The notes under the pieces were generated by a model. The model worked only from the letters and a program-made list of their open reading frames with translations, was not told the origin of the DNA and searched no databases. A DNA stretch of 64,000 nt from Dehalococcoidia bacterium (GTDB lineage: Bacteria; Chloroflexota; Dehalococcoidia; Lucifugimonadales; UBA1123), in NCBI GenBank assembly GCA_965116415.1, contig OZ220693.1, positions 2,220,753 through 2,284,752 on the forward strand, read 5' to 3'. Positions 27,441-39,245 of the stretch are shown in pieces. A program made the position numbers and the translations under genes. Each line of letters opens with the position of its first letter. Within the stretch, counting starts at the first letter, position 1.

Positions 27441-28895
27441 ATGGTTGGAGAACCCATCACAGTGATCGAGTTACAGAAGTCCGTCCCACTTAAGCTCCGT
27501 GAGCCAACGGTCGATTCCACGGACCCCTGGGCGGACGATCTCCTCACTCGACGGGACATTGCGGTACGGCTGACAAACCTGATTGCAGTTCAGGAGCCTC
27601 CCCTGACCGTCAGCATCCACGGACAATGGGGAACAGGCAAGACCTTCATGCTCACACGATGGCAGAAGGAACTAGAGAATCTAAACTTCAGGGCAGTCTA
27701 CTTCAATGCGTGGGAGGATGACTTTTGTGATGACCCACTACTCGCGATACTTGGGCAGATGTCTGAGTACTTCAAGGAAGATGATCTCAAGGCTTTAGCT
27801 CACCGCGTTATTCAGACTGCGATCCCACTAATACAAAAAAATGTGCTGGGTGTCCTATCAAAGACTACAGGGCTAACATTAAAACTTGAGGAAAGTCGGG
27901 AGGCTGAGCGAGATCTCTTCAGCGAGTATCTTGACCAAAGAGCAACAAAGGATTCACTGAGAGAGAGCCTAGAGGCAATGTCGGCAGCAGTGTTTCAGGA
28001 GACCGAACACCCCCTGGTCTTCATAATCGACGAGCTTGACAGGTGCCGTCCCACATTTGCTATCGAGCTTCTCGAGAGGGTAAAGCACATATTTGACGTC
28101 CCACACATTGTTTTTGTGCTTGGCCTCAACCGAGATGAGCTTGCCAAGTCATTGTCGTCAGTTTATGGAGACATCAACGCAGACGTTTATCTCAGACGCT
28201 TCTTTGATTTTGAATTCAACCTTCCAGAGGCTGACTCAAGAGCATTTGCCGCCCACCAAATAGCAAGACTCAATCTTCAGAGCGTCTTCCTAGGACTTTC
28301 CGAAGCTGCCAACAACGCAGTCCATGTACACGACTACGACAACTACCACATAGTCATCCCCGGCCTCTGGAGCGCCTTGGGCCTCTCCCTTAGAGACATT
28401 GACTACGGCATACGTCTGCTTGCCCTCCTTGCTCGGAATGTAAAGGTGGGCACCTTCACTCACCCATTCCTACTTGCCATCCTCATTGCGATGAAGTTCA
28501 AGAATCCAGATATCTATCACTCGCTGGTGACAGGAAACTTCCGAACTAGAGAGGTCATGGGTTATATCGAAGAACAATTGAGACGAGACTTGATTGATAG
28601 GGACCTGTCTGCCCACTTGGACAGGAGTGAAGGCTTCCTCTATTGCGCCGACAGTGCCAATGCCGCATCCCAGATGGTCGGTGAGACCGCCCTTGCTGAA
28701 TTAGAGGGAGTATTGGAGAGGTCTCCTAGCATGGACTTTTTGGTGATTTCTCAAAGAGCGCAGGATGCTGATCGACATCAGTTAGACAGAATCAGACAAG
28801 CGATCCTCGACGGATCCAATTTGAGCATAAGTCGGAGGGTGCTAGGCAACCTAGCTACTCTTATCGACACATATCAGACACAATTGAGACGTTAG
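27441..28895 (+). CDS. KAP-family P-loop NTPase
   Basis: 484 aa. Walker A is HGQWGTGKTFM, and Walker B with the KAP-typical Arg/Cys is FIIDELDRCRP. The gene is visibly more A+T-rich than its flanks. Confidence 0.8.
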   Translation: MVGEPITVIELQKSVPLKLREPTVDSTDPWADDLLTRRDIAVRLTNLIAVQEPPLTVSIHGQWGTGKTFMLTRWQKELENLNFRAVYFNAWEDDFCDDPLLAILGQMSEYFKEDDLKALAHRVIQTAIPLIQKNVLGVLSKTTGLTLKLEESREAERDLFSEYLDQRATKDSLRESLEAMSAAVFQETEHPLVFIIDELDRCRPTFAIELLERVKHIFDVPHIVFVLGLNRDELAKSLSSVYGDINADVYLRRFFDFEFNLPEADSRAFAAHQIARLNLQSVFLGLSEAANNAVHVHDYDNYHIVIPGLWSALGLSLRDIDYGIRLLALLARNVKVGTFTHPFLLAILIAMKFKNPDIYHSLVTGNFRTREVMGYIEEQLRRDLIDRDLSAHLDRSEGFLYCADSANAASQMVGETALAELEGVLERSPSMDFLVISQRAQDADRHQLDRIRQAILDGSNLSISRRVLGNLATLIDTYQTQLRR

Positions 28896-32321: not shown

Positions 32322-33074
32322 CTAGTGGCGCAGGTAGGTGAGGGCCTGTCGTGCGGCCTCGGTGCCGGCCTCGTCTGAGGTCCGGCCCTTGCCTGTACCG
32401 AGCACTCTGCCATTGACCTCAACCACCACCGTGCAGGTACAGGATCCATCCGACTTCTCCAGCCTGACCTTTCGGTACCTGGGTGTCGTGAAGAAATGAA
32501 TTAACGCGAATCCGTGCAGACGGCTTCTGGGGCGAAAGTCGATGCTGCCGATGCTGTCGGGGTCGTCGAAGGCATCGCCCATGACACGGACAACAAAGTC
32601 TCGACACGTACTGTTTCCTCGGTCCAGATACAGCGCACCGGCAAGGGACTTCACAGCATCCGACAGACGCTGGGGTTCCAGGCCCTCGCCCCTCTCACGC
32701 ACCTCCACCAGCCATCTGCTGAGCCCAAATGTCCGTGCGATCTCAGCCAGGTACTCCTCTTCCATCAGCAAGTTGCCAAAGGTCACAGCACGTTGTGTCG
32801 ACCAGAGTGGGAATCTGCTTGTGATCTCCTGTCTGACCTCGGACAGCAGTGCCCTGTTACCGATGGGTACGAGGGCATTGTCTCGAAATCGGAGCTTCAC
32901 ACGCCCGGAGCCCTTGCGGCCTGCGGTGGTACCAAGCGCCAGACCCAGCAGGGAGAGGTCATGGAATCTGAGGTCCAGACAGGACGCAATGTCCCTGAGC
33001 TCAGTCTGTGTGTAGTAATCCGTCCAAAGGCGATGAGTGTTCTGGCGATCGTCTTTCGACAAGTCGGCGCACAT
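32322..33074 (-). CDS. RNase III-like protein with a C-terminal dsRNA-binding domain; catalytic acidic residues mostly substituted
   Basis: 250 aa and collinear by eye with E. coli Rnc. [15 protein letters not shown] aligns with [41 protein letters not shown] aligns with [42 protein letters not shown] aligns with ADTVEALIGGVFLDSD. The dsRBD is ...[32 protein letters not shown]. Confidence 0.7.
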   Translation of the reverse strand: [250 protein letters not shown]

Positions 33075-33289
33075 TCAAATTGTGCCTAGCAATTCAACAG
33101 TGGTGCTGTACCGAGCAAGACAGAGATGATGGATGTCCCTTCGGCCATGAGTGACTGCAAGCTGACACAAACGTGTCATATGAGTTAAATGTAGGCCGCG
33201 CTAACCTACGTTCTGATTACGGGACGTTACATCAATAGTCCTCTGAAGTCTGTACGCAGACTGGAATCGGACATATCCCACTACGAGAT

Positions 33290-34660
33290 GTGCGTGAATT
33301 GACGAAGCCCGAACGCGATGTGCAACGACTGAGATCGGCCCAAGTGGGCTTCACGATGAGGGCATACCGCGAGTCCTTCGTGTCGGAAGATGGTCATAGG
33401 GGGCTGACGCAGGAGGGACTGCTCCAACGCATGGCGTCCGTTGACAGCGAATACGGGGAGCGGTTCAGCCATGCCACGGTCTCCCGGTGGGAGTCTGGTT
33501 CGACCCGTCCGAACCTGCAACGGTTGCAGACATTCGGAAAGGCGCTCGGTCTATCGCCCACCGAGGTGGCAGGCCTGGTCCTGCTGGCAGGCCTCGCTCC
33601 TGATTTCCAAACAGCCTCAGACCTGTCCGTCGGTAGCGAAGGGTTGCGACCCGATGAACCGTCTCCGACGGTTGCCGAGGATGTAGAAACCCAGGACCAC
33701 GAGCTCATCCCGAGCCTGCTCTCAGCCGTACTCAGGTTCGTGTTTCTCAGGTGTCTGCCGCTAGGTATATTTATCGTCGCCAGCGGCTATGCTCTGTCAC
33801 ACTTCAGTTGGGATGATTCCTGGATACCCGCCGTGTACGTATGTATTGTCATAGCTCTGGTCACGGGGCAGGGGATCTTCGCTCCCGACAGGGACGCGGG
33901 ATTGAGGGAGTTCTTCTGGGTCTCAATGTTTCTACTACTGAGCACGCCTCTCTTGCAGTTCGCGCCGATACACATGGACCACTACGGTCTCTACAGGATC
34001 GGAGACTTTGCTGGCACTCATATGCCCTACATGCTGGCCCTACTGTTGAACCTGGCGCTTGCCGCGTCCGCCGGACTGATGTTTCACCGGCTTTGGGTGC
34101 GGCATAGCTCGCAGAGTAGCGTCGATGGCAGGGCCCTTCAGCGGGCAGTGTCGGTGGTACTCCCCCCCGTTGGATTGGTTTATGCCGTAGTTATCCTGCT
34201 TTCCAACGTGTCGGTCTGGATACAGTTTGCAGTGCTGATGCCAACGCTCGGGGGCATATTCTCGGGTCTGTTGATCCTGCGTGATCCTTCGATCAACCCC
34301 AGTGATTCTGACCGGCAGTTTCTTCTTCGGACCATTTCCACGGTCGCAATCGTCGCGTCGACCATGGGCCTAGTGGTTGTCGTATTGATCTACGTTTCGC
34401 CGGACCTACCGACGGTACTTCCCGACCACAATCTGTTGCGCTCCTGGGACCTCGATTTCGATGAGCTCGGATACACCGAGGAGGAGGCACTGGAACGCCT
34501 GAACATGGGGTACATGTGGCACGCGATGCTGGTCTTTGCCTACATGGGATTTGGCGTGGGCGGAAGTTTGCTCGTGGGGTTATACCGGCTGGGGAGTGTT
34601 AAGGCCGGAAGGTCGGACGTGGGATATTCGGCTGCAGAATACTCAACGTCGAAGGGATGA
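33290..34660 (+). CDS. Membrane-anchored XRE-type helix-turn-helix protein (N-terminal HTH plus about 8 TM segments)
   Basis: 456 aa. ...GLTQEGLLQRMASV....FSHATVSRWESGSTRPNLQRLQTFGKALGL is an XRE-type HTH, followed by a long polytopic hydrophobic region. The start is uncertain (GTG 33290 or a downstream Met). Confidence 0.7.
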   Translation: MRELTKPERDVQRLRSAQVGFTMRAYRESFVSEDGHRGLTQEGLLQRMASVDSEYGERFSHATVSRWESGSTRPNLQRLQTFGKALGLSPTEVAGLVLLAGLAPDFQTASDLSVGSEGLRPDEPSPTVAEDVETQDHELIPSLLSAVLRFVFLRCLPLGIFIVASGYALSHFSWDDSWIPAVYVCIVIALVTGQGIFAPDRDAGLREFFWVSMFLLLSTPLLQFAPIHMDHYGLYRIGDFAGTHMPYMLALLLNLALAASAGLMFHRLWVRHSSQSSVDGRALQRAVSVVLPPVGLVYAVVILLSNVSVWIQFAVLMPTLGGIFSGLLILRDPSINPSDSDRQFLLRTISTVAIVASTMGLVVVVLIYVSPDLPTVLPDHNLLRSWDLDFDELGYTEEEALERLNMGYMWHAMLVFAYMGFGVGGSLLVGLYRLGSVKAGRSDVGYSAAEYSTSKG

Positions 34661-37578: not shown

Positions 37579-38361
37579 ATGTATGCCCAGCCTGTCGTCA
37601 CCTTCAGGCGTTGTCAGGTCCACGGTCTTCTGCTCGATTATTCTGTAGTTTGGATTCTGCAAAATCCATTGACGGTGTCGGCCGCCAACAGCGAGGACTT
37701 TCCCTCGGCAGCTACATTGACCGAATGGTACACTACGGTACGTCCAGCGCGGGGAAATTCCGGAATTGAGGAGGCTCCAAGAGCTTTGCCCCTGTTCATC
37801 CCTTGGAACTCTGAGGGCTTCATACCCCCAATTGGATCAAGTGGTTCTACTTCACACGACAGGTCGCCTTATGTCATCTCATTAAGTGACCTGGTCCAAG
37901 ACTTTGGACACACCTCAACTCGCCAACGTCTACTCTCCGGGTTTCTGAGTTATAGAGCCATGCTGCACCAAGTGGGAATTACGAGGGGATTCCAATGGAT
38001 TAACGGCAGTTTCCTCGAGAACGTTGAAGAACGTGATAGCCGCGATCCCGAAGACATAGACGTGGTGACATTCTTTAGCCTTCCAAGTGGGTATACTGAA
38101 GAAACCCTACTCGACGCGGACCAATCTGCTTTTGATCCGACCTACATTAGATCCAGATACGAGGTTGATGCTTACTATGTAGTATTGAATGCTGAGCACA
38201 TGGACTACATCATAGAAAGTTCCACATATTGGTACAGTCTCTGGTCTCACACCCGTGATGGGCAATGGAAGGGCTATCTGCAAGTTGATCTGGCCAATGT
38301 TGAAGACGAGACTGCCCGGACTGAAATTGGTAAGGGCGTGGAGGAAGGGGGACAGCCGTGA
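37579..38361 (+). CDS. Minimal nucleotidyltransferase-fold protein (Pol-beta superfamily; tentatively DUF6932-like)
   Basis: The motif QWINGSFLENVEERDSRDPEDIDVVTF fits hG[GS]-x(9-14)-D-h-D. The N-terminal (M)PLFIPWNSEGFIPPIG...PYVISLSDLVQDFGHTSTRQRLLSGF resembles that family from memory. The probable real start is TTG 37786, preceded by GAGGAGG (192 aa). Confidence 0.6.
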   Translation: MYAQPVVTFRRCQVHGLLLDYSVVWILQNPLTVSAANSEDFPSAATLTEWYTTVRPARGNSGIEEAPRALPLFIPWNSEGFIPPIGSSGSTSHDRSPYVISLSDLVQDFGHTSTRQRLLSGFLSYRAMLHQVGITRGFQWINGSFLENVEERDSRDPEDIDVVTFFSLPSGYTEETLLDADQSAFDPTYIRSRYEVDAYYVVLNAEHMDYIIESSTYWYSLWSHTRDGQWKGYLQVDLANVEDETARTEIGKGVEEGGQP

Positions 38362-39245
38362 ACGCACACGAATTTCGCCTCCTGCTTTCGGAACGTGCAG
38401 CGTTAAGAGATCTTATTGATCGCGCTCCGCCCGGCAACGTAATTACAAAGATGAGCTTTGAGAACCGCCTACGACGGGTTGAGGAGCAACTCGAATCCTA
38501 TGAAGGCTACTCCCCTCATGTTGTCAACGCGCGTCTTACGTTCAGAGGGAAACCAGTTTTGGGCAGCCGTGCGGTCGACGCAGGATTTGGTCTGGACGCA
38601 GCGAAGGCATTCGTGGAGGCGGTTGCTAACGTCGGGCGTGCTTGGGGCGGTGGCGATTCGGATTTTAGGTTGCTAATTACCGGAACTACGCGGGGCTCTT
38701 TCGGATTCGAAGTTGAGGATGCCACTCAGACACCAGCTCTTGAGGGTGAATCAACACCAGTGGAGCGGGCGCTGGAACACGTCAGGGACATTCTGAAAGC
38801 CACCACCGGGACCGACGACCAGTTGGCTGATGCGATAGAAGACACCGACGATAGCACTCTCAGGGCGATACACCTGTTCCTCAAGACGGTTGCAGACGGC
38901 GATGCGATGTGCGCGCTGGAAATACAAGATGACAAGTTCAGTTTTCAGAGTGCTGACCAGGTCGAGCGAAGCGCAGGACGGCTGGACCAGAGAAACATCA
39001 GCATTGAAAACGTTGAACTGAGTGGACATCTCCAGGGAATCATGCCCAAGGGGCGAAGAGCGGAGTTTGTCGTGAAAGAGACGGGGGACGTGATTACCGC
39101 TAGGGTTCAGGCACCGGTGGCGGAATCGGTTCTCACCGCCGAGATGATTAACCAGCCTGCGAGAATCAGGGCTCGGACCCGGCGAGTGGGCAACAGCAGG
39201 CCAACTTACATTATTACCGATTTCGATTCGGATTCTACCTCGTAG
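38358..39245 (+). CDS. Hypothetical protein (295 aa), translationally coupled to the upstream nucleotidyltransferase gene
   Basis: The GTG start overlaps the upstream stop (GTGA). Composition is coding-like and I recognise no family. It shares the lower-G+C islet with the upstream gene. Confidence 0.55.
   Translation: MNAHEFRLLLSERAALRDLIDRAPPGNVITKMSFENRLRRVEEQLESYEGYSPHVVNARLTFRGKPVLGSRAVDAGFGLDAAKAFVEAVANVGRAWGGGDSDFRLLITGTTRGSFGFEVEDATQTPALEGESTPVERALEHVRDILKATTGTDDQLADAIEDTDDSTLRAIHLFLKTVADGDAMCALEIQDDKFSFQSADQVERSAGRLDQRNISIENVELSGHLQGIMPKGRRAEFVVKETGDVITARVQAPVAESVLTAEMINQPARIRARTRRVGNSRPTYIITDFDSDSTS

Follow-up and report, generated by a model that had tools for sequence, protein, structure and literature searches.

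The 64,000-nt stretch of Dehalococcoidia bacterium DNA analysed here (contig OZ220693.1, positions 2,220,753 to 2,284,752; hereafter the window) encodes a 250-amino acid (aa) protein, designated rncL, that is a true, though weakly scoring, homologue of class 1 RNase III in which the residues needed for catalysis have been replaced. To judge from its sequence and phylogenetic position, rncL is a pseudo-enzyme restricted to one lineage, with its origin in an accessory subfamily of RNase III. Our preferred reading, to which we assign a probability of about 0.5, is that it is a non-cleaving binder, most likely of structured RNA, that has been retained by selection. An initial annotation, made from the DNA letters alone, had described an RNase III-like open reading frame (ORF) at 32322..33074, and the 250-aa ORF exists as described, on the minus strand.

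Homology to RNase III is apparent at several levels. A phmmer search of the PDB sequences matched rncL to the T. maritima RNase III 1o0w (1.9e-13), and hhalign aligned it to the canonical RNase III profile with a probability of 99.9% (E 3.5e-32). The fold homology is thus clear, but the cut-offs of the curated families that define bona fide Rnc proteins are not reached. In Pfam, PF14622 (Ribonucleas_3_3) scores 32.3 bits against a cut-off of 35 and PF00636 (Ribonuclease_3) 25.9 bits against 27, and in NCBIfam TIGR02191 scores 56.7 against 166.25. With an AlphaFold2 (AF2) model of rncL (pLDDT 77), the top Foldseek matches are the RNase III structures of E. coli, T. maritima and Aquifex (7r97, 1o0w and 2nug; probability 1.00), and Drosha, the RIIIb-dsRBD region of Dicer and the mitoribosomal protein mL44 are also matched.

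The alignment register on which the catalytic assignments depend was obtained in four MAFFT alignments of different sequence sets and also with hhalign, and places NALVPIGN of rncL on ERLEFLGD and DAVK on DTVE. The substitutions initially proposed, E38N, E41V, D45N, E65T and E117K with D114 kept, were reproduced by both methods and hold when the catalytic columns are checked by profile-profile alignment. A phmmer alignment to the C. jejuni RNase III, with a gap in the signature region, gives a shifted register that was rejected because the four MAFFT alignments and hhalign agree on the earlier one; there, too, no acidic residues fall on the catalytic columns. Residue numbers are those of E. 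coli (Ec). The E. coli and Aquifex reference sequences were used only for this numbering, and all six residue numbers given in the literature land on acidic residues of the E. coli sequence used.

For conservation counts, 129 canonical representatives from an exhaustive HMMER search were aligned with the six members of the degenerate clade to which rncL belongs. The E41, D45 and E117 columns are each invariant in 129/129 canonical representatives and hold V, N and K or R, respectively, in all six members of the degenerate clade. The E38 column is E or Q in 124 of the canonical proteins and N or D in the degenerate clade, and the E65 column, E in 120 canonical proteins, is T or P. At the 'ball' residue Ec F42, all 129 canonical sequences have F, Y, L or W whereas the degenerate clade has P, L, S, F, I and L. 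A 4-residue deletion also takes out the canonical 'LGxGE' loop. The signature motif and the full set of metal-binding carboxylates (Ec E38, E41, D45, E65, D114 and E117) that characterise an RNase III are therefore not present in rncL. D114 had been noted as the only catalytic residue retained. It is indeed kept, but this carries little weight because the column varies among canonical enzymes, with D in just 88 of the 129. Descriptions of the E. coli enzyme usually count D114 among the conserved metal ligands. In 41 of the 129 otherwise canonical RNase IIIs, including SAR202-type enzymes, the residue in this column is A, N, G, C or E; P0172, P0174, P0179, P0187 and P0016-P0018 are examples.

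The effects of several of these changes have been documented in E. coli. E117K is the rnc70 allele, which abolishes cleavage in vivo and in vitro with retention of double-stranded RNA (dsRNA) binding, D45N results in weak cleavage, E38V is inactive in vivo, and F42G, F42D and F42R abolish activity in vivo (PMC8708148 Table 1). E117 bridges both catalytic Mg ions (PMC3867540). The presence of D45N together with the rnc70 change, and this metal-bridging role, strongly support the initial description of the protein as non-catalytic. With E117K, D45N and E38N combined with E41V and E65T, loss of catalysis is about as safe as sequence inference allows, and the prediction that rncL would be unable to perform two-metal-ion cleavage is strongly supported.

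The C-terminal dsRNA-binding domain (dsRBD) had been described as intact. This holds for the fold, with Pfam PF00035 (dsrm) matching residues 182-248 at 33.4 bits (cut-off 23) and the alpha-beta-beta-beta-alpha order kept in the secondary structure of the AF2 model, but not for the residues that contact RNA. Canonical dsRNA contacts are made by a Glu in alpha-1, by GPxH in loop 2 and by KKxAK at the start of alpha-2 (PMC4748816). In the degenerate clade, residues in all three regions have been replaced, at seven positions where the canonical residues are 80-96% conserved in the 129 relatives (Table 2), and rncL therefore does not have the three RNA-contact regions of a type A dsRBD. The argument that rncL binds dsRNA because its dsRBD is intact is unsupported as made, the alpha-1 Glu, GPxH and KKxAK contacts being missing, although the spirit of the proposal may still hold as this domain is both the most constrained part of the protein and strongly basic. 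Over the last 72 aa, the net charge amounts to +5 to +7 in the degenerate clade versus -2 to 0 in the canonical P0159, P0167, P0004 and E. coli proteins. The ratio of nonsynonymous to synonymous substitutions (dN/dS) is 0.10-0.18 for the dsRBD-like domain (bootstrap upper bounds 0.22-0.43) versus 0.33-0.44 for the nuclease domain. This constraint, together with the gain in positive charge, indicates a dsRBD that has been remodelled, not abandoned, and some binding function is likely for this domain.

Table 1. Location of rncL, its domains and motifs, and the adjoining features within the window
Feature	Position	Strand	Description and basis
rncL	32322..33074	minus	250-aa RNase III-like protein; apparently dead nuclease domain and remodelled dsRBD-like domain
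Degenerate RNase III nuclease domain, residues ~26-170	32565..32999	minus	Pfam scores below cut-off; 4-residue deletion
Signature-motif remnant, NALVPIGN for ERLEFLGD (E38N, E41V, F42P, D45N)	32856..32879	minus	MAFFT, hhalign
DAVK for DxxE (D114 kept, E117K)	32649..32660	minus	MAFFT, hhalign
dsRBD-like domain, residues 176-250	32325..32549	minus	Net charge ~+6; dsrm, secondary structure, contact columns
Divergent intergenic region	33075..33289	.	215 bp with three short inverted repeats; 79-85% identity among three genomes
HTH-membrane gene	33290..34660	plus	XRE-type HTH, acidic linker, ~8 transmembrane helices

Table 2. Residues at dsRNA-contact positions in canonical RNase III proteins and in the degenerate clade
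Position (E. coli numbering)	Canonical	Degenerate clade
Q161	Q in 116/129	H
E162	E in 105/129	G
Q165	Q in 104/129	L
G181	G in 120/129	K
H184	H in 110/129	G
K208	K/R in 124/129	S or F
K209	K/R in 105/129	D, S or K

The rncL ORF is intact in all six sequence variants, which are present on contigs of 3.76, 3.61, 3.57, 3.39 and 0.47 Mb. Between species, dS is ~0.45-0.5, and the dN/dS of the whole gene is 0.28-0.34 (bootstrap 95% upper bound <=0.48) versus 0.13-0.27 for neighbouring genes. The gene evolves faster than its neighbours, with 74-75% aa identity versus 80-94%. Based on the intact ORFs, and on dN/dS values with intervals well below 1, rncL is not a pseudogene, and the substitution pattern clearly points to its being kept under purifying selection.

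A function consistent with these features would be as follows. The class 1 architecture, nuclease-domain fold plus dsRBD fold, is kept, and selection would act mainly on the C-terminal dsRBD-like domain, in which canonical contacts have been lost and strong basicity gained. The faster-evolving, dead nuclease domain has most likely been kept for a scaffolding or dimerisation role. Structured RNA would be bound through a non-canonical, charge-driven surface, and rncL would occupy, shield or regulate this target instead of processing it, possibly in a circuit shared with the divergently transcribed membrane protein, with an XRE-type helix-turn-helix (HTH) domain, encoded by the adjoining gene.

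The origin of rncL can be traced to a small group of relatives. In the protein database, only two clusters besides the query are close to it (75-76% identity), and a scan of GTDB genomes placed these in complete-chromosome metagenome-assembled genomes (MAGs) labelled Dehalococcoidia bacterium, OZ247432.1 and OZ220685.1; further members, on a 3.61-Mb and a 0.47-Mb contig, came from cluster look-ups. In an exhaustive profile search that covered 1.84 billion representatives, the degenerate clade was returned as a single 50%-identity cluster, followed by P0010 (8e-42), P0011 (8e-28) and then the canonical background near 1e-19. Scans of the JGI metagenomes and IMG/VR found nothing above 34% identity, i.e. 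canonical background. The rncL clade is thus limited to one genus of Dehalococcoidia MAGs, and a phage origin, or membership of a wider family, was rejected based on the single-cluster result and on these JGI and IMG/VR matches of <=34% identity. PADLOC has no model that matches rncL, P0010 or P0169, as would be expected of a known defence system, and the sole PHROG match is to a family without an assigned function.

By neighbour-joining (200 bootstraps), the degenerate clade has a very long branch and falls together with P0010 and P0169 with 97% support, and the three form the sister of the tight P0159 group. P0010 and P0169 are the closest relatives of rncL (41% and 32% identity), have N-terminal 'HY[ST]' and C-terminal 'RSWGH' motifs in common with rncL and also have a basic dsRBD (+10 and +5). 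They differ in having kept all catalytic carboxylates, and in the absence of an adjoining HTH-membrane gene from their regions, which are rich in insertion sequences (IS) and defence genes. P0011 and P0014, like P0010, retain every catalytic residue. The surroundings of P0010 (L008 7643..8347) and P0169 (L010 113..811) include IS66, IS21 and DDE transposases, a SIR2_2-protein kinase, a type ISP restriction gene and DUF4145. Given these mobile and defence surroundings, and with the dsRBD of P0169 below Pfam detection, the subfamily looks accessory and evolutionarily labile. P0169, with its catalytic residues kept, might represent a second, independent route of degeneration within the subfamily. 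The initial annotation had noted the absence of era, lepB and fatty-acid genes near rncL, and this is correct. The possibility that rncL is a positional orthologue of canonical rnc was rejected, as the canonical relatives P0010, P0162 and P0169 are located in unrelated contexts. A separate observation concerns P0009, a 391-aa bacterial protein encoded on a Logan contig of 2,368 bp, in which two RNase III domains, each with an intact QRLEFLGD, are arranged in tandem ahead of a single dsRBD; such an intramolecular-dimer layout resembles that of Drosha and Dicer and is unusual in bacteria.

Fold, dead site and selection, the features by which a pseudoenzyme of the RNase III family is recognised, are found together in rncL. 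The closest experimental counterparts are E. coli rnc70 (E117K) and the D44N and E110K crystallographic mutants of Aquifex, which have a nuclease domain plus dsRBD and the same substitutions at two key positions. These are, however, laboratory point mutants with a fully canonical dsRBD, whereas rncL is a natural protein that is additionally without E38, E41, E65 and the 'LGxGE' loop and has had its dsRBD contacts replaced. KREPB4 and KREPB5 (and KREPB6-8) of the trypanosome editosome are natural RNase III pseudoenzymes with dead catalytic sites that are retained by selection (PMC3867540), but they are eukaryotic and mitochondrial, have Zn-finger and PUF domains in place of a dsRBD, and have known active partners, KREN1-3. 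For rncL, no active partner was found among the matches and cluster members examined. The mitoribosomal protein mL44 and maize chloroplast RNC1, whose RNase III domains are inactive, combine an inactive RNase III-like domain with a dsRBD in a structural role, but are eukaryotic organellar proteins within ribosomes or splicing complexes. Chains of mL44 (3j7y_c and 6vlz_c) are among the Foldseek matches of rncL, but the match to the mL44 family PF22935 is weak (E 0.03, 14.8 bits versus a cut-off of 27) and does not amount to membership at the sequence level. Finally, the 'type B' dsRBDs, Loqs dsRBD3, TRBP dsRBD3 and Staufen RBD5, have kept the fold and lost the alpha-1 Glu, GPxH and KKxAK (PMC4748816), as in rncL. 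They have, however, also lost positive charge, region 3 of Loqs being AADAQ with a negative potential, whereas the rncL domain has a net charge of +6 and an L2 loop that is not shortened.

In a limited literature search, degenerate RNase III proteins were found only in eukaryotic and organellar systems, and no bacterial class 1 example was returned. In rncL, a natural gene that is intact in several complete genomes and under purifying selection bears D45N and E117K, the changes that geneticists and crystallographers have used to separate binding from cleavage. It would provide a compact system in which to ask what a non-cutting RNase III scaffold does, and how a dsRBD is rebuilt when contacts are lost, charge is gained and constraint is kept. 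The practical weight is limited, as this is a single uncultured genus with only a putative ligand.

The neighbouring gene (Table 1) had been described as divergently transcribed and encoding a membrane-anchored XRE-type HTH protein, and both the HTH domain and ~8 transmembrane helices were found. HTH_3 (PF01381) scores 25.6 bits (cut-off 23) and PF13560 26.8 (cut-off 27), and the HTH domain, of the Cro/C1 type that defines the XRE family, superposes on the DNA-binding domains of BldD, CI, C.AhdI and ClgR (probability 0.99-1.00). The N-terminal HTH is highly conserved and the linker is strongly acidic (10 D/E, 1 K/R). With the AF2 model of this protein (pLDDT 79), only the HTH part matched PDB structures and not the membrane domain, for which there is also no Pfam model, and PADLOC returned just insignificant RmrA matches. 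In the window and in OZ220685.1, the genes are arranged as Xan_ur permease, HTH-membrane gene (divergent), rncL, CoA-transferase III, PQQ propeller. In OZ247432.1, both outer flanks differ, one having a major facilitator superfamily (MFS) transporter and the other methyltransferases, and the HTH-membrane/rncL pair is intact. An HTH-membrane gene therefore adjoins rncL in all three genomes of the genus, the locus with differing outer flanks (L006) included, and the two genes have the same intermediate G+C content at third codon positions (GC3; 0.69-0.70).

The HTH-membrane family is large and occurs in many Chloroflexota genomes, with 446 matches at 55-62% identity. Outside the genus, the neighbour is not RNase III-like in any of five independent contexts, that of the closest homologue (73% identity) among them; the genes present encode a secreted protein, an aspartic protease plus a recombinase, and CARDB, cadherin-like and DUF4148-like proteins. 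Conservation of the pairing, which the initial annotation had proposed to check, is thus observed within the genus and across two contexts but not in the HTH family at large, which makes it genus-specific. It is suggestive, but no proof, of a functional relationship between rncL and the HTH-membrane protein. Members of this uncharacterised family (P0337-P0456) often adjoin toxin-antitoxin (TA), abortive infection (Abi) or recombinase genes, and there are sometimes two copies on one contig (P0432/P0433, P0422/P0430).

Several of these observations weigh against rncL as a selected binder of structured RNA. With the canonical contacts gone, the dsRBD is of a kind that typically binds proteins, not RNA (PMC4748816), and rncL is a putative binder, whether its ligand is RNA or otherwise. 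The relaxed constraint on the nuclease domain, and the variable residue at Ec F42, make dimerisation uncertain. The clade is a single genus so that long-term retention is unproven and, with the HTH family widespread in the absence of an RNase III neighbour, a functional link may be incidental.

One alternative, raised in part by the initial annotation, is that rncL would form heterodimers with a canonical RNase III from another locus of the genome, resulting in a nickase with a single active site or in an inhibited enzyme. Such an arrangement has been proposed for KREPB4/5 with KREN1-3, of trypanosomes. Degenerate RNase III partners are an established theme, dsRNA is nicked by artificial heterodimers of the E. 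coli enzyme (PMC3867540), and rnc70 is dominant over the wild type (PMC8708148); the retained nuclease-domain fold, with dN/dS below 1, is consistent with such a role. The ball-and-socket 'ball' residue is, however, hypervariable in the clade and its replacement in E. coli (F42G/D/R) abolishes activity in vivo (PMC8708148), of the two halves of rncL it is the nuclease domain that is under weaker constraint, and no canonical Rnc was detected on chromosomes of the genus among the matches listed. We consider a heterodimer unlikely.

The last of these points depends on the canonical rnc complement of these genomes. In a six-frame scan with hidden Markov models, neither the 64-kb window nor the syntenic loci gave a further RNase III homologue. 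A word-indexed search seeded with P0010 listed no canonical Rnc on chromosomes of the genus among the best 120 matches, a search that could miss a more divergent canonical Rnc, and three cluster look-ups placed none on the 3,755,442, 3,569,597, 3,394,821 and 3,607,147-bp contigs among the matches and cluster members examined. Enzymes of the P0159/P0167 type are present in related Dehalococcoidia genomes of the same project, on contigs of 3.35, 3.99 and 4.07 Mb, and the loci of the genus have no genes in common with the loci of genomes with a P0159-type Rnc that would allow a comparison. RNase III is widely conserved in bacteria (PMC8708148) and, for this reason, a canonical rnc is probably present elsewhere in these genomes. 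It is doubtful that rncL is the sole RNase III-domain gene of these complete Dehalococcoidia chromosomes and that RNase III-type dsRNA cleavage has been given up. Were this so, a free-living genus would have turned its last RNase III homologue into a protein that is non-catalytic and has a basic, remodelled dsRBD, other enzymes would have to process rRNA and dsRNA, and the view of RNase III cleavage as near-universal in bacteria would be challenged.

A second alternative, which we likewise regard as improbable, is that the dsRBD-like domain is of 'type B' and that rncL is an adaptor that binds a protein, possibly the HTH-membrane protein through its acidic linker or its loops, and thereby modulates this regulator. 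Loss of three RNA-contact regions is a feature of the protein-binding modules Loqs dsRBD3, Staufen RBD5 and the Dicer C-terminal dsRBD (PMC4748816), the acidic HTH-protein linker and the basic dsRBD-like domain have opposite charges, and the gene pair survives a change of context. Members of the HTH-membrane family (446 matches) nevertheless work without such a partner in other genomes, and the pairing occurs in only three genomes of one genus.

That rncL is a functionless duplicate in slow decay, in which no stop codon or frameshift has yet arisen, would be consistent with its single-genus distribution, very long branch, evolution faster than that of its neighbours, and variability at formerly functional positions. 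On dN/dS grounds, decay was judged quite unlikely, with values of 0.28-0.34 overall and 0.10-0.18 in the C-terminal domain and intervals well below 1; the divergence between species also corresponds to ample time for disruption of an ORF that is intact in six of six variants. Finally, a still-active nuclease that makes use of other residues or another chemistry, for which the retained D114, an Asp at position 38 in P0003 and nearby acidic residues such as E124, E127 and E130 might be cited, is highly implausible given the invariance of E41, D45 and E117 in 129/129 relatives, the loss of cleavage caused in vivo and in vitro by E117K by itself (PMC8708148) and the incompatibility of a lysine at the site that bridges both metals with a two-metal mechanism (PMC3867540).

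Among the three genomes, the intergenic DNA that separates rncL from the HTH-membrane gene is conserved to about the same degree as coding DNA, and contains the inverted repeats AGTCTG-N4-CAGACT, GTAGG-N9-CCTAC and, with a variable spacer, GACAC-N4-GTGTC. The second of these is GCAGG..CCTGC in L001, a compensatory double change. Only two pairs covary among the three intergenic sequences and there is no Rfam match; a structured RNA in this region was therefore set aside. There are also no matches to promoter or terminator consensus sequences within this region. The repeats are candidate operators for the HTH protein or could form 5'-untranslated region (5'-UTR) hairpins.

Two further regions of the window look like exchanged or foreign DNA. 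A variable cargo slot, flanked by a PIN/antitoxin pair and a DUF433 gene (27441..28895 in the window, 14243..15862 in L001), is occupied by a KAP-family NTPase gene in the window genome, with a GC3 of 0.55 versus ~0.8 for core genes, and by an AAA_15/AAA_21/SMC_N-type ATPase gene at the same position in the sister genome (L001). The slot resembles a small site at which defence or TA genes are exchanged. At 37787..39245, a DUF6932 gene overlaps by 4 bp an adjoining gene for a 295-aa protein without a Pfam match, and the two, with GC3 values of 0.55-0.58, are probably a foreign two-gene module.

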